In this document: piece after piece, positions 48,786 to 54,700 of the stretch
Position numbering within the stretch: position 1 is the stretch's first letter
How the letters are laid out: each line of letters opens with the position of its first letter
Assembly (NCBI GenBank): GCA_014686905.1
Contig: GCA_014686905.1_4093.1
From: a phage
DNA: 64,000 nt
Reading direction: 5' to 3' (one strand)
Program-made: the position numbers and the translations under genes
The notes under the pieces: generated by a model
Database searches by the model: none
Told to the model about the DNA's origin: nothing
What the model saw: the letters and a program-made list of their open reading frames with translations, nothing else

Positions 48786-49196
48786 ATGAGTTTAGATTTA
48801 CACAATGAACTAAAATATTTTTTAGATTTGGACATATCAGAATTGAACCACCACGTCAATCATATGACTAGTACTGTATGGTGGTCTAATGAACAAGACG
48901 ACCCAATTATCCAACTAAGTGATGAATCGTCAATTATGCGATTTTATAAGATTAATTATAAAAAGAACATCAAGATCACATATGTACCATACAAAAACAT
49001 ATTACTAGTCGAAACACTTAATCCAAGTTCTTTATTAAAAATCACCGATTTAGATACATTACAAACAAGTGAATCTTTATTCCAACGTTCATTAGTTGAT
49101 GATCTTGGTGGTATTACTTTTGAAGATATATTACAATTGAAGAATATGTATAGTGAATTGTTGGAGATTAAAAACACTTTAGTAATGGGGAATTGA
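48786..49196 (+). CDS. EE-x-F-Q-motif family member
   Basis: TSESLFQRSLVDDLGGITFEDI. Confidence 0.45.
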   Translation: MSLDLHNELKYFLDLDISELNHHVNHMTSTVWWSNEQDDPIIQLSDESSIMRFYKINYKKNIKITYVPYKNILLVETLNPSSLLKITDLDTLQTSESLFQRSLVDDLGGITFEDILQLKNMYSELLEIKNTLVMGN

Positions 49197-49197
49197 T

Positions 49198-49602
49198 ATG
49201 GTAAGTTTACTAGATATTGATAATACCAGTTTAGTGCTGGTGAAAAAAGGTTTAATTCCAAATTCTAAAAAAATTGATTATGCTGTTATTGAAACAAATA
49301 TTGGAAATATCTGGTACGACTCTGAAAGGGATATTGTGTTTAGCTGTGTAGACAGTGATCGTTCTGAATGTTGTAGAGTCGGTCATGACGGACAATTTGT
49401 TTTTGAATTTCGTTATTGGAAGAACGCAAAATTTCACCAAGAACTGGTTGCTTTGTCAAATGAACTATATACAGAAGAATCGTTCTTCATGGCTAGTACT
49501 ATTAATGATTTTGGTTCAGTTACATTTGAGTACTATAAAAAAATATACGCACTATCCAGAGAAGTTATGAAAATTATCAGAACTGCTGAAGGTAAAGAAT
49601 AA
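49198..49602 (+). CDS. EE-x-F-Q-motif family member (degenerate motif)
   Basis: TEESFFMASTINDFGSVTFEY. Confidence 0.45.
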   Translation: MVSLLDIDNTSLVLVKKGLIPNSKKIDYAVIETNIGNIWYDSERDIVFSCVDSDRSECCRVGHDGQFVFEFRYWKNAKFHQELVALSNELYTEESFFMASTINDFGSVTFEYYKKIYALSREVMKIIRTAEGKE

Positions 49603-49603
49603 C

Positions 49604-49981
49604 ATGACTACTATATATGATATTTTGGGTGTTCTGAGTAGAAATATAGATGATGATTTTGTTATTGTTCAAGATACTAGAAATACATTTCAACTACCAA
49701 TAGGTTCACCAGATAGGTTAATTTTTAATAGATACTCAAATGAACTAACTTACATCCATGATGGGATTGCAATTGTATCAGTTTCTATAAACGACTATAC
49801 AATACGATATGTATATGACTTCAACGATTATTGTACAAGAATCCACAGTATTGATATTTCCGAAGAGGAACTATTCCAATTGTCATTGATTGAGAAAAAT
49901 GTAATAGGAATTACAGAAATTGGTATTATTAAAAAAGCATTAAACTATACAAATATAAGAATTAATGGTGGGTGCAGATGA
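49604..49981 (+). CDS. EE-x-F-Q-motif family member
   Basis: SEEELFQLSLIEKNVIGITEI. Confidence 0.45.
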   Translation: MTTIYDILGVLSRNIDDDFVIVQDTRNTFQLPIGSPDRLIFNRYSNELTYIHDGIAIVSVSINDYTIRYVYDFNDYCTRIHSIDISEEELFQLSLIEKNVIGITEIGIIKKALNYTNIRINGGCR

Positions 49982-50433
49982 ATGTTGACGAAATAAAAAA
50001 TCATTTTGAAATTGCAATGTCATGTGAATTTGACACACAACGTGTTCATGACCCGAAAGAACATATACGCATTTGTTGTGAATTGTCAGATGATTGTAAT
50101 ATTTTTATTGGAAAAACCTATGACATGATCGATCTTTCATGTATAGATCCATTGGAAAGAAAAACAAAATATTTATATCTGTACAACACAACATCAGATA
50201 CGATTGCAATACAACTAATATCAACCACAACATCCCACAGTTATTATAACATAACTGAGGTTAGTAGTTTAACGTTAACCGAAGAAGGATTCTTTCAACA
50301 ATCGCTTATTCGTGAAATTGGTGTTAGTTATGATGAGTTAAATGTATTAGTAGATTGTTTCGAAAAATTGAGTACTTTTGTATTATCCCTTTTTAATATA
50401 CAGTCGCAAAATCCAATGGTGGTGAAATGCTAA
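49978..50433 (+). CDS. EE-x-F-Q-motif family member
   Basis: TEEGFFQQSLIREIGVSYDEL; ATG overlaps upstream stop. Confidence 0.45.
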   Translation: MNVDEIKNHFEIAMSCEFDTQRVHDPKEHIRICCELSDDCNIFIGKTYDMIDLSCIDPLERKTKYLYLYNTTSDTIAIQLISTTTSHSYYNITEVSSLTLTEEGFFQQSLIREIGVSYDELNVLVDCFEKLSTFVLSLFNIQSQNPMVVKC

Positions 50434-50867
50434 ATCCAAGTAAATTTCTCCACTTACTTTCGATAACATCAATACCGGATCTTACCAGTGAAACTAATGA
50501 ATATCGTGAAGCTGGGGTGGTGTCTATGGAACTCGATACATTTGACCACAAATGCTATGTGACATATGACCCACCGCGTTATGGTAAAGAACATTCTTCT
50601 TTTATTTTTGTATTCGTATACACTGTATATGATAATACAACACTTGATGATGTTTGTATTGACACTTACGAAATTTGTGATAATATCATAACTGATGACA
50701 ACAATAACTCATTTGATATGTCACTATATAACACAGAAGAATCGTTGTTTCAACTTAGTACTGTTATTGATGCACCATCATTAGAAGATATAAAACAATT
50801 TCAAGAACATCTTGACGCAGTTCGTGAGATGTTCTATAATCATTATCCAGAAGTAGAGTTCAATTAA
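50427..50867 (+). CDS. EE-x-F-Q-motif family member
   Basis: TEESLFQLSTVIDAPSLEDI. Confidence 0.45.
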   Translation: MLNPSKFLHLLSITSIPDLTSETNEYREAGVVSMELDTFDHKCYVTYDPPRYGKEHSSFIFVFVYTVYDNTTLDDVCIDTYEICDNIITDDNNNSFDMSLYNTEESLFQLSTVIDAPSLEDIKQFQEHLDAVREMFYNHYPEVEFN

Positions 50868-50881
50868 CTAAAGGTAATAAG

Positions 50882-51142
50882 ATGACTAAAGTAGTTCGTA
50901 AACGCCACATGATGAACATGGATGAATTTCGTACATTTGACAAATATCGTACTATGTTTCGTATGCTTTCACAGGGCCGTCCAATCGTCATTGTAACAGA
51001 GAATTACATGTCACCTGAGATTATGTTTGGTAATTATGAAAAGGTCTTCATGTTGTACGTGAAGCGTGGATTACTTACAATCAAGACATTAGCTGAAGCA
51101 ACTGATGAAGATATGGATGGTGATAATACCTTTACCATGTGA
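50882..51142 (+). CDS. hypothetical protein
   Basis: 86-aa ORF. Confidence 0.35.
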   Translation: MTKVVRKRHMMNMDEFRTFDKYRTMFRMLSQGRPIVIVTENYMSPEIMFGNYEKVFMLYVKRGLLTIKTLAEATDEDMDGDNTFTM

Positions 51143-51220
51143 GGAAATATATGTCTGAAAAGCCAAAAGAACCATTAGATCGTGATGATGATTTTTATGA
51201 CGAACGATATGGAGATGATG

Positions 51221-51472
51221 ATGAGTGAACATAGTGCTGTGCTTAAAAAGATTTTAAAGGAACTTGATGGTGAGTTTAATGTCACAGAAGAAGAATATCA
51301 GCATTGGAAGAAAGGTTTTGAACAACTAACCGAGTATGATAAAGTGTTCAATATGATTGGTGTAATTAGCCAGTACTTACTCGGTGGAGGACGTGCAAGT
51401 GCTTCAATTCTGGCATCTGCAATCATCTGTACATCACGATGGTGTGATGAAAAAAGTTTGGAAGATTTCTAA
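51221..51472 (+). CDS. hypothetical small protein
   Basis: Track ORF 51182 (GTG); likely start in ATG run 51215-51221; a 25-aa acidic upstream ORF (51151..51228) overlaps. Confidence 0.3.
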   Translation: MSEHSAVLKKILKELDGEFNVTEEEYQHWKKGFEQLTEYDKVFNMIGVISQYLLGGGRASASILASAIICTSRWCDEKSLEDF

Positions 51473-51487
51473 ATAAGATGCTATAAT
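51458..51487 (+). promoter_or_regulatory. sigma70-like promoter upstream of C5 methyltransferase
   Basis: TTGGAA-18-TGcTATAAT. Confidence 0.5.
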
Positions 51488-51524
51488 ATATTATAGTACC
51501 TTAACAATATAAAAAGGATTTTAT

Positions 51525-52385
51525 ATGAAACCTATCCGAGTACTTTCTCTTTTTAATGGAATGAGTGTGGGATATATGGCATTGCAAGATGCTGGTATCC
51601 CAGTTGAAAAATATTATTCATCCGAAATTGACAAGTACGCAATAGCTGAATCTCAATCTAACTTTCCTGATATTATCCAATTGGGTGATGTAACTAAGTG
51701 GAGAGAATGGGATATTGAGTGGGACAAAATAGATTTATTAATGGGTGGTTTCCCATGCCAAGCCTGGTCAGTTGCAGGTAAACAGGGTGGTTTAAATGAT
51801 ATACGTGGGCAGTTATTTTTAGTAATGGTTGAAATTTTTGATCATATCAAAAGTCTCAATCCTAACTTGAAATTTCTGTTTGAAAATGTTAAAATGAAGG
51901 AAGATTTCAAAGAATACATTAATAGTATTTTAGGAATCACGCCAGTACTGATAAACTCCCAGCATTATACGCCTCACTTCAGGCAGAGATATTACTGGTA
52001 CAGTACTGATAAGCTTTTTATACCACCTGCATTATCCAATGCACCTAAACTTCAAGATATTATTGAAGATGGTTGGTACACTGACAGAACCGCTTCGTAC
52101 TGTATAGATGCTAACTATTTTAAAGGTGGTGATTGTAACCAGTACTTTAATAAATCCAGACGACAATTGGTGTTTCGTGACCCAGTGATCAGTCGTCAAT
52201 ATCTATTAGAGAATGGCAAAAGAAATATTGACTATAGACACTTAAGTGTAGTAGAATGTTGTAAATTACAGGGTGTTCCTGAAGATTTCTTTAAAGTGTC
52301 TAGTAAGACACAAGCATACAAAATGCTTGGGAATGGATGGACTATGCCAGTTATATCACATTTACTAAGAGAGATATTCTTTTGA
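51525..52385 (+). CDS. DNA (cytosine-5)-methyltransferase
   Basis: Motif I LFNGMSVG, IV GGFPCQAWS, VI FLFENV, VIII HFRQRYYW, X LGNGWTMPV; 286 aa, short target-recognition region. Confidence 0.88.
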   Translation: MKPIRVLSLFNGMSVGYMALQDAGIPVEKYYSSEIDKYAIAESQSNFPDIIQLGDVTKWREWDIEWDKIDLLMGGFPCQAWSVAGKQGGLNDIRGQLFLVMVEIFDHIKSLNPNLKFLFENVKMKEDFKEYINSILGITPVLINSQHYTPHFRQRYYWYSTDKLFIPPALSNAPKLQDIIEDGWYTDRTASYCIDANYFKGGDCNQYFNKSRRQLVFRDPVISRQYLLENGKRNIDYRHLSVVECCKLQGVPEDFFKVSSKTQAYKMLGNGWTMPVISHLLREIFF

Positions 52386-52867
52386 ACATAAACAAATACC
52401 AAACTTATATAAAACGTACAGAAAGTTTCAAACGGCTGGCTGTAAAATCTGAATTAGAATTTAATTTGTATTATCCTAATATTGGTGATGAGGTATTTTA
52501 TTGCTCTCATTCAAAGAATGGAACTTTACTTAAATCGGGTAAAGGAACTATTGTTGATATGACCGCAAATTTCAGAGGTAAACTTAATGTAATGTACAAA
52601 GTACAAGATTCAAGTACTGAGTGTATTCATGAAGTGATGCATAACATACCTGCATATCCAAAAGATTTTGTTCAGCTAATATCTCGAAGGGAGAAACCTA
52701 TGTTTTATTGTGGTTACGACAAATTAACCAAACAAATTATTCCTAATACTATGGGAAAATTTAAAAGTGATGTGAAATCTGAACTTGAAAAGAAATTTGG
52801 CACGTCATGGGAAACTGAAAACGAGTTTATCGAAATTCGTTTAATTGAAATTACTATACTTGAATAA
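52337..52867 (+). CDS. hypothetical protein (start uncertain)
   Basis: ORF overlaps methyltransferase 3' end by 49 nt in another frame. Confidence 0.3.
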   Translation: MDYASYITFTKRDILLNINKYQTYIKRTESFKRLAVKSELEFNLYYPNIGDEVFYCSHSKNGTLLKSGKGTIVDMTANFRGKLNVMYKVQDSSTECIHEVMHNIPAYPKDFVQLISRREKPMFYCGYDKLTKQIIPNTMGKFKSDVKSELEKKFGTSWETENEFIEIRLIEITILE

Positions 52868-52871
52868 TTAC

Positions 52872-52896
52872 AAATCCACGCATTGCGTGGATTTTT
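52872..52896 (+). terminator. rho-independent terminator
   Basis: AAATCCACGC-ATT-GCGTGGATTT-TTC. Confidence 0.55.
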
Positions 52897-52909
52897 CATA
52901 GGTGCATAT

Positions 52910-53425
52910 ATGCCAATTCCTTATGTTAAAATTATTAATAATATTCTCGATTCATGGGAAGATGTTATTACTGGTAAAAAGAAACCATCACCAGTACATG
53001 CTTTATCTGGGAAACTTCAATTCAGAATGTCAAACCAAACTGAAACATTTAATAATCATGATATTTGCATTACATTAAAAACACCTGTTAGTATTGTAAT
53101 TAAAAAAAATAAAGATGATGAATTGACATTATCTATTGGTCGTGATAAAATCATTTTAAGTAATTTGTCTGAAGAAGAATTCTTTCAACGTAGTACTATC
53201 ATCGATATGAAAGATTTCACATATGAATCATTGGTTGAACTCAATACACGTTTTAACGATATTCAGGAACGATTGCGACCAATTCTTCGTATCGAAGAAG
53301 AAGCCTGGATTGAAAGTATTAGGAAGATGCAAGAAATGTTGAAAGAAAATATTAACAATCTGGGTAAAGCTACAATGGAATTTGGTAAAACTTTTAAACT
53401 GAACTTTTCAAAGGATCGTAAATGA
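52910..53425 (+). CDS. EE-x-F-Q-motif family member
   Basis: SEEEFFQRSTIIDMKDFTYESL; track ORF 52883 starts TTG inside terminator. Confidence 0.45.
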   Translation: MPIPYVKIINNILDSWEDVITGKKKPSPVHALSGKLQFRMSNQTETFNNHDICITLKTPVSIVIKKNKDDELTLSIGRDKIILSNLSEEEFFQRSTIIDMKDFTYESLVELNTRFNDIQERLRPILRIEEEAWIESIRKMQEMLKENINNLGKATMEFGKTFKLNFSKDRK

Positions 53426-53877
53426 AAATTGATAATTTGATTCATGTTTTAGGATCTTTACATAAAATATTATCACATCTACATGAGATAAAGAAACTGG
53501 GATTTAACATCTCAAATTCAATTGAAACTACATTTAAATATCAATCAATTACTGGTGATGGTTATTACATAATCGAATATACTTATGAAACCGATCCAGA
53601 CTTCTATCCTCTTACGTTGAGAATTTATCCAACAAATCCGAGAGGAATTCACGACATATCATCAATTTCACTTGATCCAGATGGTGAAACGAGTATTGAA
53701 TACAATAATGATTCAAAACCAGAATTTTACATTGATGATATTAAAATGATGTTCAACGATGAATATGTTTTCCAACAAAGTACTGTGCATGATGTTGGAA
53801 GTACTAATGGACAATTTTGGAATACGTGTTATTATCATATGATTGAAATTTGTAAATTACTAAAAGGCGATGATTAA
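53422..53877 (+). CDS. EE-x-F-Q-motif family member
   Basis: NDEYVFQQSTVHDVGS. Confidence 0.45.
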   Translation: MKIDNLIHVLGSLHKILSHLHEIKKLGFNISNSIETTFKYQSITGDGYYIIEYTYETDPDFYPLTLRIYPTNPRGIHDISSISLDPDGETSIEYNNDSKPEFYIDDIKMMFNDEYVFQQSTVHDVGSTNGQFWNTCYYHMIEICKLLKGDD

Positions 53878-54260
53878 TGAAATACAGCATTGAAGTACAT
53901 TACACTACAGGGGACACTGAAACTGAAGATTCAGTTACCAATACATTGGATGTTCAATGGGAATCAAAGGATGAGGCAGTTGTAGCATTACAGTCGTTGA
54001 AAGAGCATTGGGTATTCTTTAAGAAACTCGATGATGCATATAGTAACGAACGTGCGACAATAATCGATGAAGCCAAACATAAAGAATGGTTTGATCCAAT
54101 GTCATGTGAATTCTCTTTCTTTGTAAAAATTGGAGATGAAAAAATTCCAGTACGTACACCGTGGAACGGCTACTTTGAAACTCTTCATAATGCACGAGTT
54201 GTCGCTGTTGATAATCCTGAACAAATCGATTTCGATTCATTGGACTGGAAAAAACTATGA
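53877..54260 (+). CDS. hypothetical protein
   Basis: 127 aa, TAATG overlap. Confidence 0.4.
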   Translation: MKYSIEVHYTTGDTETEDSVTNTLDVQWESKDEAVVALQSLKEHWVFFKKLDDAYSNERATIIDEAKHKEWFDPMSCEFSFFVKIGDEKIPVRTPWNGYFETLHNARVVAVDNPEQIDFDSLDWKKL

Positions 54261-54700
54261 CAGTACTGCACCAATTAAAGAAGGTTAAGCATCCAGTTGT
54301 ATACGAGGATTGGAAACGACAGAAGTTGATGGGTGATTTTTATTTCCCAAAATCTAAAGTTCTTGCGAATTCAAGATGTACATATTTCAAACATAATGAT
54401 AAAGATACAGTATTTGTTGAAATGGGTTTCAATCCATCAAATACAATGTTCAGCACTAACCAAACATTTTACAAATTTCATATCCAAAAAGATTCATTTT
54501 CTATCATGATTTTAAAACTTTTAGTTGAAGATCTGCTATACCGTGGTGAACGTGTTCCTTTATCATTAGTGGATATTCCTTATAATAATTTAGAGGAAAT
54601 GTACTTCCAACAGTTGACAATACAAGAAGACTTTGGTATGATAGGACTTCAAGAGTTAGAGATGATTAAACAAATTCGTGATATCTACTTTAAGGAGTAA
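54257..54700 (+). CDS. EE-x-F-Q-motif family member
   Basis: LEEMYFQQLTIQEDFGMIGLQEL. Confidence 0.45.
   Translation: MTVLHQLKKVKHPVVYEDWKRQKLMGDFYFPKSKVLANSRCTYFKHNDKDTVFVEMGFNPSNTMFSTNQTFYKFHIQKDSFSIMILKLLVEDLLYRGERVPLSLVDIPYNNLEEMYFQQLTIQEDFGMIGLQELEMIKQIRDIYFKE

Follow-up and report, generated by a model that had tools for sequence, protein, structure and literature searches.

The window analysed here, a 64,000-nt stretch of phage DNA, belongs to an Asteriusvirus jumbo coliphage and shares about 99.7% nucleotide identity with 121Q, PBECO4 and G17. It carries a gene for a stand-alone cytosine methyltransferase, preceded by a ribosome-binding sequence and a promoter-like site and followed by an overlapping open reading frame (ORF) and a terminator-like hairpin (Table 1). 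The gene is already known as 121Q gp91, and numerous GenBank entries label it DNA-cytosine methyltransferase. Its protein is 99.7-100% identical in 121Q (99.7%), PBECO4, phAPEC6, G17 and slurp01, with the same length and neighbourhood; among the matches listed, 13 phage records agree with it at 100% identity. Nothing of substance separates it from gp91, the present window holding an intein-free allele and a lineage-specific promoter-like insert.

Table 1. Features of the methyltransferase locus, in window coordinates; residue numbers refer to the methyltransferase.
Feature	Position	Strand	Remarks
Promoter-like site, TTGGAA-18-TGcTATAAT	51458..51487	+	sigma-70-like, 10/12 consensus matches, TG present
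Shine-Dalgarno sequence, AAGGA	51514..51518	+	6 nt upstream of ATG
CDS, orphan DNA (cytosine-5)-methyltransferase, orthologue of 121Q gp91	51525..52385	+	ATG start, 286 aa
Motif I (SAM binding), F10-N-G12-M-S-V-G16	51552..51572	+	F10 and G12 invariant in 87 homologues
Motif IV, G75-F-P-C78-Q79	51747..51761	+	invariant in 87 homologues
Motif VI, E120-N121-V122	51882..51890	+	read in the sequence, invariant in homologues
Motif VIII, R153-Q-R155-Y-Y-W158	51981..51998	+	DNMT3-like R-x-R-Y-[YF]-W
Target-recognition (variable) region, residues 159-237	51999..52235	+	short, about 79 aa, between motifs VIII and IX
Motif IX, R238-H-L-S-V-V-E244-C-C-K-L-Q-G-V-P252	52236..52280	+	R238, L240 and E244 conserved
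Motif X, G269-N270-G271-W-T-M-P-V-I277	52329..52355	+	DNMT3-like G-x-x-W-[ST]-x-P-V-I
Downstream ORF, 176 aa from first ATG	52337..52867	+	49-nt overlap with the 3' end of the methyltransferase gene
Intrinsic-terminator-like hairpin, AAATCCACGC-att-GCGTGGATTT then TT	52872..52897	+	directly 3' of downstream ORF

Profile, motif, fold and context evidence together establish the product as a full C5-cytosine DNA methyltransferase. The protein scores 131.2 bits with the Pfam profile PF00145 (cutoff 22, E=7.5e-38) and 119.2 bits with the TIGR00675 dcm profile (cutoff 100.65); it matches phrog_116 of the PHROGs collection with E=5e-60, and the PADLOC models MTase_II and oMTase as well. Core motifs I, IV, VI, VIII and X, which the preliminary description had listed, are all present and invariant in 87 homologues, bearing out its view of the gene as an orphan phage C5-cytosine methyltransferase. 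Motif II is represented by E34/D36, and within motif IV the P77-C78-Q79 triplet lies at 51753-51761, with the codon of the catalytic nucleophile Cys78 at 51756-51758. In sister phages (TH47), an intein sits at this catalytic cysteine, its insertion point falling between 51755 and 51756; a position precisely at the catalytic residue is what one would expect where a maintained gene has a conserved active site. Nothing direct on inteins in C5-methyltransferases turned up in a literature search.

The AlphaFold2 model (pLDDT 93.7, pTM 0.91) has the two-lobed C5-methyltransferase fold, which the fold searches confirm: Foldseek against the PDB returned DNMT3A with E=7e-25 and a TM score of 0.80, the best 50 PDB fold matches were all (50/50) catalytic domains of DNMT3A, DNMT3B or DNMT3C, and the BFVD matches were all viral C5-methyltransferases. 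Sequence and family-profile searches rank the solved structures alike, with DNMT3 first (E of about 1e-23 over the full length by sequence and 1e-35 by profile), and the alignment to DNMT3C and DNMT3A extends to shared signatures, namely VLSLFDG(M/I) (motif I thus having the DNMT3-like form VLSLFxG(M/I)), R-x-R-Y-[YF]-W and G-x-x-W-[ST]-x-P-V-I-x-H-L. Identity to DNMT3 is nevertheless only about 27%, and the 286-aa coliphage protein has neither the N-terminal PWWP and ADD domains nor the DNMT3L partner nor the eukaryotic origin of that family; nor is DNMT3 CpG specificity indicated, as ClaI and NruI cut the DNA of a relative. As the scores of HhaI and HaeIII fall short of those of DNMT3 by no more than a few orders of magnitude, the likeness is best described as resemblance rather than membership.

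Other names attached to this gene fare less well. M.HaeIII has the general C5-methyltransferase core in common with the phage enzyme, but in its recognition region phage residues 156-256 match only over motif IX (E=0.3), leaving the ‘HaeIII’ label of the slurp01 and Sharanji annotations as an automatic best-match name. Queried alone, the same residues gave no significant PDB sequence match apart from motif IX, and naming the specificity from solved structures was dropped. CFT is the DNMT2-type motif of the recognition region, and this tripeptide was not found on reading residues 159-237; a DNMT2 identity was also rejected on its scores (E=4e-10 to 1e-6, versus 3e-23 for DNMT3 and 7e-18 for HaeIII/HhaI). 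Dcm, at about 472 aa, is some 190 aa longer than the phage enzyme, which has an unrelated recognition region and no vsr; with the Dcm/M.EcoRII subfamily model NF007772 (PRK10458) the protein scored 21.4 bits where 710 are required, in an alignment confined to the surroundings of motif IV, although the two enzymes possibly share the CCWGG target and the protection it gives against EcoRII-type enzymes.

With the phage orphan C5-methyltransferases (PHROG 116, PF00145, PADLOC oMTase) the protein shares its motif set, size class, stand-alone position and presumed anti-restriction role. Among them, jumbo-phage enzymes have the recognition region in its minimal form, devoid of a C-x-T(L)T segment of 30-60 aa that longer relatives possess in addition; the core of the region, D187-R..SYCIDANYFKGG..QYFNKSRRQLVF, does not vary within the family. 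The preliminary description had drawn attention to the compact protein and its short variable region; both measurements stand, but they do not distinguish this enzyme, since compact size is the norm in a very large, phage-dominated family of at least 8000 members, many of them 268-300 aa long. Phage TET-coupled C5-methyltransferases are likewise compact, have short specificities (GpC[C/T]) and act after replication (PMC8256090), but no TET/JBP or glycosyltransferase adjoins the present gene.

The surroundings of the gene are those of a solitary methyltransferase. Pfam and PHROGs searches of ten flanking ORFs (48786-53877) found no restriction endonuclease, Vsr or TET family and no TET/JBP or tailoring-enzyme match that would make up a methyltransferase-TET cassette, and PADLOC on eight ORFs (50882-54700) matched nothing except the methyltransferase, although restriction enzymes diverge fast and a missing match is not proof of their absence. 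TET/JBP proteins are also absent from jumbo phages according to a published survey. The adjacent cognate endonuclease that marks a Type II restriction-modification system is not seen here, nor was one found beside the orthologues or beside the distant homologues P0089 and P0104, which lie in phage contigs among replication or structural genes; these were the two contexts covered in an attempt to find bacterial homologues next to a named restriction enzyme. With no partner family among the neighbours, and distant homologues also alone in phage contigs, orphan status holds, in agreement with the earlier remark that no restriction endonuclease partner is recognisable nearby. The downstream ORF, for which the WPEC5 annotation uses a later start, was considered as a Vsr-like or restriction partner and rejected, having no matches in Pfam, PHROGs or PADLOC; it is probably co-transcribed with the methyltransferase. 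The G17 annotation places a terminator where the hairpin lies, and this hairpin possibly closes a two-gene unit. More broadly, the neighbourhood consists of small genes of the host-takeover type, with a tRNA cluster about 10 kb away, and an Rfam scan of 50500-53500 yielded one sub-threshold chance match only.

A promoter of its own, as the preliminary description proposed for the gene, is harder to sustain. The -35 hexamer (51458-51463) falls within the 3'-terminal part of the upstream ORF, with the extended -10 element at 51479-51487; the match is to a consensus only, and promoter-like matches in the region show no excess over shuffled sequence (41 versus 43.8). TGCTATAAT of this site is kept in WPEC5 and Turkey5, and conservation of the element is limited to the 121Q/WPEC5/Turkey5 lineage; the whole segment of about 40 nt is missing from EJP2, and no equivalent element occurs in the aligned relatives Hallingskeid, CBB and GAP32, just 18-22 nt separating the upstream gene from the methyltransferase in these four phages. 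The site is accordingly treated as a putative promoter of one sub-lineage. The translation signal is far more widespread, AAAGGA(T)TTT..ATG being kept in 7/7 aligned relatives.

The gene is under strong purifying selection, with dN/dS of 0.04-0.09 against relatives at which synonymous sites are saturated. Orthologues in syntenic position in CBB (CBB_399) and GAP32 (GAP32_390) are 75-76% identical, that of Hallingskeid (DMFGBAAK_CDS_0275) 78% and that of fEgEco12 95.5%; the short form of the enzyme is kept at 75-100% identity across genera that have little genome nucleotide identity in common.

Any protective role has to be set against the composition of the genome as a whole. GCGC does not occur once in the 350-kb genome (159 expected), 18 six-base palindromes are absent from it, and CAGTACTG is about 60-fold enriched. 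Among other sites, CCSGG (observed/expected 0.32) and GGWCC (0.52) are depleted, whereas CCWGG is kept (251 in the genome, 0.84), and GGCC (0.81) and CGCG (0.98) are not strongly avoided. Clearly, the main anti-restriction device of this genome is site avoidance; the methyltransferase can cover at most the sites left over. As a guide to its target, k-mer avoidance yields only candidate motifs, with CCWGG, GGCC and CGCG retained. In a genome-wide analysis of synonymous sites, CCWGG and GGCC give no signal and CCWGG has not lost its inner C, while C before G at synonymous third positions stands at 0.68x (z=-24); this CpG depletion is general, extending to all contexts with extremes only at GCGC and CCGG. 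CpG depletion is common in AT-rich genomes that have no CpG methylation. Compared with ECO103 (97.9%), the window has an approximately 2x CpG excess in C/T differences, which at third codon positions amounts to 1.7-2.4x more C/T differences per C at CpG and is not motif-specific; between ECO103 and TH47 (84% identity), the effect of codon position outweighs all else in the C-to-T comparison, and synonymous sites have probably reached saturation.

By analogy with established PF00145 enzymes, the target cytosine would be flipped out of the helix and attacked at C6 by Cys78, with the base held in place and activated by Glu120 of the ENV motif and Arg153/Arg155 of motif VIII; motifs I-III and X would bind SAM, whose methyl group would pass to C5, and beta-elimination would free the enzyme. 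The short, family-invariant loop 187-217 would read a short DNA motif. Production of the enzyme is presumed to occur during infection, and in the 121Q/WPEC5/Turkey5 lineage expression may start at the sigma-70-type extended -10 promoter, a two-gene transcript then ending near 52872-52897. We think it likely that the gene encodes an active stand-alone C5-methyltransferase, which would methylate replicated phage DNA and so mask some short motif still present in the genome, almost every other GC-containing restriction site having been removed by avoidance. Protection of the genome from host restriction, which the preliminary description also put forward, is plausible on this reading, and the phAPEC6, CBB, UE-S1 and Sharanji papers suggest a ‘protective methylation’ role for the gene. 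Against this role, the BASEL study did not find that phages with methyltransferase genes resist restriction in any simply predictable way.

The most likely target motif, which we put forward tentatively, is the Dcm/EcoRII site CCWGG. The hosts of slurp01 and Sharanji include MG1655. In K-12, with its McrA, McrBC and Mrr systems, a tolerated 5mC mark must avoid R-5mC and Y-5mCGR; the Dcm-type mark C-5mC-WGG does so, whereas HaeIII-, HhaI-, AluI- and CpG-type marks do not, GG-5mC-C, for example, being McrBC-sensitive. Growth on K-12 under these Mcr rules therefore counts in favour of CCWGG, as does the retention of this site, with its inner C undepleted, in the genome; against it counts that neither Dcm/M.EcoRII-specific similarity nor a vsr-like partner was found. 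SexAI (ACCWGGT) is Dcm-sensitive according to supplier methylation tables. Published methylation evidence on relatives conflicts. Nanopore data on Hallingskeid revealed exactly two motifs, GATC 6mA and CCWGG 5mC, in a phage with exactly two predicted methyltransferases, one of them the orthologue; Kaldavass has the same two motifs plus TGCAT, and the authors of that study noted that host Dcm could explain CCWGG. Virion DNA of fEgEco12, in contrast, was reportedly digested as predicted by SexAI, ClaI, NruI and HindIII, which argues against complete CCWGG, CpG or AGCT methylation. A literature search for methylation data on Asteriusvirus found nothing direct. A methylated CpG site has been reported in RaK2 DNA (data not shown), but the bisulfite and restriction remarks on RaK2 were rejected as a guide: of the two RaK2 genes compared, ORF445, chosen because its length matches, proved unrelated, and gp447 encodes a small Dam-like protein. 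The other methyltransferase named for RaK2 is gp194.

That the enzyme is an active protective orphan with another short specificity is unlikely; examples would be a CpG-containing target (CCGG or some different NCGN subset), GGCC, or a motif of 2-3 bp like that of the compact phage GpC enzymes. Such a target would fit the minimal, DNMT3-like recognition region with DNMT3 as best structural match, the SexAI cleavage of fEgEco12, the weak avoidance of GGCC and CGCG in a genome free of GCGC, and the existence of GpC dinucleotide-specific phage C5-methyltransferases (PMC8256090). The CpG deficit at synonymous third positions and the C/T differences at CpG also point this way, but that deficit is present in all contexts and hard to separate from the wholesale loss of sites containing CG, and the ClaI and NruI digests of fEgEco12 imply that not all CpG is methylated. 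The RaK2 site loses force in that neither of the two RaK2 genes compared, ORF445 and gp447, is a homologue, and GGCC gains nothing from a ‘HaeIII’ record label that the recognition region does not support. No such motif emerged from Hallingskeid or Kaldavass nanopore data, and G-5mC or CpG marks would be open to McrBC, McrA and Mrr in the K-12 hosts of slurp01 and Sharanji.

It is improbable that the main job of the enzyme is something other than site masking, such as a phage epigenetic mark (serving transcription, replication or packaging, or letting a phage nuclease tell self from non-self), methylation of host DNA, or DNMT2-like RNA/tRNA methylation. Avoidance already escapes most Type II enzymes, to which a single methyltransferase adds little, fEgEco12 virion DNA behaves as unmethylated with four 5mC-sensitive enzymes, and the gene sits among host-takeover-type genes not far from tRNAs; yet the family is that of the classic phage orphan DNA methyltransferases (phrog_116, PADLOC oMTase), two orthologue-carrying phages have 5mC at a defined DNA motif, and a regulatory function has no positive support. 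The DNMT2 variant, suggested by the label of one record, faces the missing CFT motif and matches far weaker (E about 1e-10) than those to DNMT3 (1e-23) or HhaI/HaeIII (1e-18). A remnant that is inactive or in decay, and that persists by chance or because it carries mobile elements, is hardly credible: the recognition segment of longer relatives is missing and the published fEgEco12 digests show no protection, but the low dN/dS, the intact and invariant catalytic residues, the persistence of the short form across genera and the very confident structure model all oppose it. A more far-reaching reading, given a slim chance, would see the methyltransferase as a viral DNMT3-type counterpart that uses its minimal loop to set a very short CpG-containing or other non-Dcm mark in a self/non-self scheme together with the GCGC loss and the CAGTACTG excess. 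If this were true, the clade-wide twofold synonymous CpG loss would be the mutational footprint of the enzyme, and the mark would act through that scheme instead of by simple site masking.

As it stands, the gene matters little, being a catalogued orphan methyltransferase for which ‘protective methylation’ is the standard reading, and the names ‘HaeIII’ and ‘DNMT2’ given to it in public records are baseless. The near-total purge of Type II restriction sites narrows the purposes that such an enzyme could serve in this genome, and its specificity is relevant to phage-therapy candidates of Asteriusvirus, since the hosts open to them are those in which they evade restriction and Mcr-type systems.

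The methyltransferase gene (MTase) encodes a real C5-cytosine methyltransferase, far beyond what chance would produce, as profile matches, readable motifs, invariant residues and a confident structural model together demonstrate. Its product scores 131 bits against Pfam PF00145, the C-5 cytosine DNA methylase family (E=7.5e-38; gathering score 22), lies above the cutoff of TIGR00675 'dcm', is covered over its full length by PHROG 116 'DNA methyltransferase' (E=5e-60), and is matched by both the Type II and the orphan methyltransferase models of PADLOC. The core motifs named in the preliminary description are indeed present, with all the key residues invariant across 87 aligned homologues whose identity goes as low as ~50%; from this alignment AlphaFold2 built a very confident model (pLDDT 93.7, pTM 0.91). 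The identification is correct; the gene, already on record, is an ordinary one.

Coordinates of the MTase, its sequence motifs, adjacent signals and the intein-bearing allele of phage TH47
Feature	Position	Strand	Details
MTase CDS	51525-52385	+	ATG start, 286 aa
Motif I	F10-N-G12-M-S-V-G16	+	read from sequence
Motif II	E34/D36	+	read from sequence
Motif III	G54-D-V	+	read from sequence
Motif IV	P77-C78-Q79	+	read from sequence
Motif VI	E120-N-V	+	read from sequence
Motif VIII	R153-Q-R155	+	read from sequence
Motif IX	R238..L240..E244	+	read from sequence
Motif X	G269-N-G	+	read from sequence
Promoter-like site	51458-51487	+	TTGGAA-18-TGcTATAAT
Ribosome-binding site	6 nt before MTase ATG	+	AAGGA, from sequence
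Hairpin, terminator-like	52872-52897		AAATCCACGC-att-GCGTGGATTT; perfect 10-bp stem, then T-run, right after ORF 52337-52867
TH47 intein-bearing MTase	MT446416.1, 175438-177327	minus	insertion point = window 51755/51756

Over the 3 kb around the MTase, identity is 99.0-99.7% to Asteriusvirus jumbo coliphages, including 121Q, PBECO4, vB_Eco_slurp01, G17, phAPEC6, Sharanji, SHEFM2K and others, and the protein is 121Q gp91, 100% identical in 13 records among the matches listed. Papers on phAPEC6, CBB, UE-S1 and Sharanji list the enzyme and suggest protective methylation without experiments, that on Sharanji repeating the HaeIII reading, and a jumbo-phage survey mentions such methylases in this group. 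Given these identical records, the existing annotation and the published mentions, the finding was already known.

Record names vary by pipeline ('DNA-cytosine-methyltransferase', 'putative modification methylase', 'haeIIIM', 'DNMT2'), and the automatic names in LT603033, OR545507 and PQ471516 clash ('haeIIIM / Modification methylase HaeIII', 'DNMT2', 'HpaII'). The recognition region gives these three names no support: searched alone against the PDB, the region gave no match beyond motif IX, so the 'HaeIII' label lacks support, as does 'DNMT2'. Compared with relatives of ~320-335 aa, the jumbo-phage enzyme lacks a 30-60 aa segment bearing a C-x-T(L)T motif and keeps the invariant core D-R..SYCIDANY.KGG..QYF.KSRRQLVF. 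The family holds at least 8000 proteins at E<=1e-10 in a database search, many of them 268-300 aa long, so that 286 aa is normal; the enzyme is as short as first described, but compactness does not distinguish it. By sequence, the solved structures closest to the MTase are the catalytic domains of DNMT3C/3A/3B, with end-to-end alignments at E ~1e-23; HaeIII and HhaI follow (~1e-18), then DNMT2 (~1e-10). A family profile gave the same order, with HhaI (1e-31) and HaeIII (7e-29) close behind DNMT3 (1e-35), and the best 50 Foldseek matches in the PDB were all DNMT3 domains (TM 0.80, ~27% identity). The proteins share VLSLFxG(M/I), R-x-R-Y-[YF]-W and G-x-x-W-[ST]-x-P-V-I-x-H-L; unlike DNMT3, the MTase has neither PWWP nor ADD domains. 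The likeness is one of resembling compact catalytic domains, not of membership, and the literature places the origin of DNMT3 in prokaryotic methyltransferase sequence space.

The proposed orphan status is supported by the neighbourhood, with the reservation that restriction enzymes are difficult to identify from sequence. None of the ten flanking ORFs (48786-53877) has a significant Pfam match, their PHROG matches are all to families of unknown function, and a PADLOC scan of eight ORFs (50882-54700) returned the MTase's own matches only. Orthologues in Hallingskeid, EJP2, CBB and GAP32 likewise sit among small hypothetical genes, and two distant homologues, which lie on phage contigs next to genes for ligase, RecA or portal protein, have no recognisable nuclease nearby. 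In E. coli, vsr overlaps dcm, an arrangement resembled by downstream ORF 52337-52867, which overlaps the 3' end of the MTase; this ORF carries no signature of a Vsr or nuclease partner. Separately, the MTase is flanked on either side by small ORFs, eight in all (125-180 aa; 48786-50867 and 52883-54700, + strand), which have no Pfam matches, share the C-terminal motif EE-x-[FL]-F-Q-x-S/L-x-[IV] and cross-match each other's PHROGs (24941, 17453, 21500); they look like a tandemly expanded paralogous family.

The claim of an own promoter fared less well. The promoter-like site exists, but matches of this kind in the MTase region are not enriched over shuffled sequence (41 vs 43.8). Among the relatives compared, WPEC5 and Turkey5 alone keep the extended -10; the entire ~40-nt segment is missing from EJP2, and spacers in Hallingskeid, CBB and GAP32 are 18-22 nt. 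A dedicated promoter would thus be a lineage-specific possibility rather than a feature of the gene. The downstream hairpin reads as such on both strands and coincides with a terminator annotated in phage G17; with its T-run after ORF 52337-52867, it makes a two-gene unit with the MTase conceivable.

Inteins typically occupy conserved active sites of maintained genes. In TH47 the MTase gene encodes 629 aa, with a 343-aa in-frame intein (CFTEGT...VVHN|C; Hint_2 and LAGLIDADG_3 domains) directly before catalytic Cys78 of the PCQ motif, which forms its +1 residue. Match coordinates suggest that the UE-S1 and A4 genes are split at the same site, and the window carries the intein-free allele. Our literature search yielded no description of a C5-methyltransferase that carries an intein. 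Furthermore, dN/dS for the MTase is 0.04-0.09 against WPEC5, Turkey5, EJP2 and CBB, with synonymous sites near or at saturation.

E. coli K-12 MG1655 carries the Type IV systems McrA, McrBC and Mrr, and tolerates the Dcm-type C-5mC-WGG mark but not G-5mC (HaeIII, HhaI, AluI types) or CpG marks. Phages slurp01 and Sharanji propagate on this strain. Native-versus-amplified nanopore sequencing of Hallingskeid detected two motifs, GATC (6mA) and CCWGG (5mC), and its paper predicts two methyltransferases, one of which (DMFGBAAK_CDS_0275) is the MTase orthologue; Kaldavass shows the same motifs plus TGCAT. CCWGG is our leading guess for the target, though a tentative one: the nanopore authors point to host Dcm as a possible source of the mark. 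Moreover, in-silico patterns are reported for digests of fEgEco12, whose enzyme is 95.5% identical, with SexAI (35 supplement mentions), ClaI, NruI and HindIII, and cutting as predicted argues against complete methylation of CCWGG, CpG or AGCT. Some other short motif seems rather unlikely; the remaining weight falls on non-protective roles or inactivity.

Base composition bears on the same choice. In the near-identical 350-kb genome OR844650.1, CCWGG (251 copies, 0.84 of expectation), GGCC (0.81) and CGCG (0.98) are retained, CCSGG (0.32) and GGWCC (0.52) are lower, and GCGC is absent (0 vs 159 expected; window, 0 vs 21). Since GCGC is also absent from the examined pieces of Hallingskeid, EJP2, CBB, GAP32 and RaK2, this is a signature of the whole Rak2-like clade, which might stem from restriction avoidance in an extreme form or from a GCGC nuclease encoded by the phages. 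Eighteen six-base palindromes are missing as well, including CTGCAG (53 expected), CCATGG (36), GGTACC (32), GGATCC (31), TCCGGA, GCATGC, GCTAGC and CTCGAG, and CAGCTG occurs once (32 expected); ACGCGT, GTGCAC and CACGTG are exceptions. The CpG odds ratio is 0.73 (CA/TG, 1.24). At synonymous third positions of OR844650.1, C before G stands at 0.68x expectation (z=-24) whatever bases flank it, most extremely in GCGC (0 of 89.5) and CCGG (0.39), with no depletion of the inner C of CCWGG or GGCC. When the window is compared with ECO103, CpG shows 1.7-2.4x more C/T differences per C, a signal that, like the synonymous one, is suggestive, not motif-specific and confounded by site avoidance. Methylation, site avoidance and codon-pair bias are candidate causes of the CpG depletion, none of them established.

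Other sequences are over-represented. The palindrome CAGTACTG is ~60-fold in excess (204 copies in 350 kb vs 3.4 expected from base composition; 24 in the window), in all three reading frames and intergenic DNA, for example inside the MTase gene (51948-51955 and 51999-52006). Its number is conserved in TH47 (84% identity), and the enrichment extends to Hallingskeid, EJP2, CBB, GAP32 and RaK2; unrelated phages with a homologous methyltransferase do not show it. CAGTAC/GTACTG is ~9-fold over-represented, and AGTACT has 918 copies. OR844650.1 is also rich in the E. coli Chi octamer, with 12 copies of GCTGGTGG and 16 of its complement (~1 expected from base composition), and the Chi-related hexamers TGGTGG, CTGGTG and CACCAG are 4-5x enriched, mostly at ~100-200 kb and 300-350 kb.

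PF00145 enzymes flip the target base, attack its C6 through a cysteine, transfer the methyl group from SAM and finish by beta-elimination; in the MTase, the nucleophile would be Cys78. The enzyme may act after replication, masking a motif still present in the genome despite avoidance. The qualifiers 'compact' and 'own promoter' add nothing distinctive to it; more unusual than the MTase are the clade-wide absence of GCGC and of many hexamer palindromes, the CAGTACTG excess, the intein that sister phages carry at Cys78 and the family of paralogous small genes.
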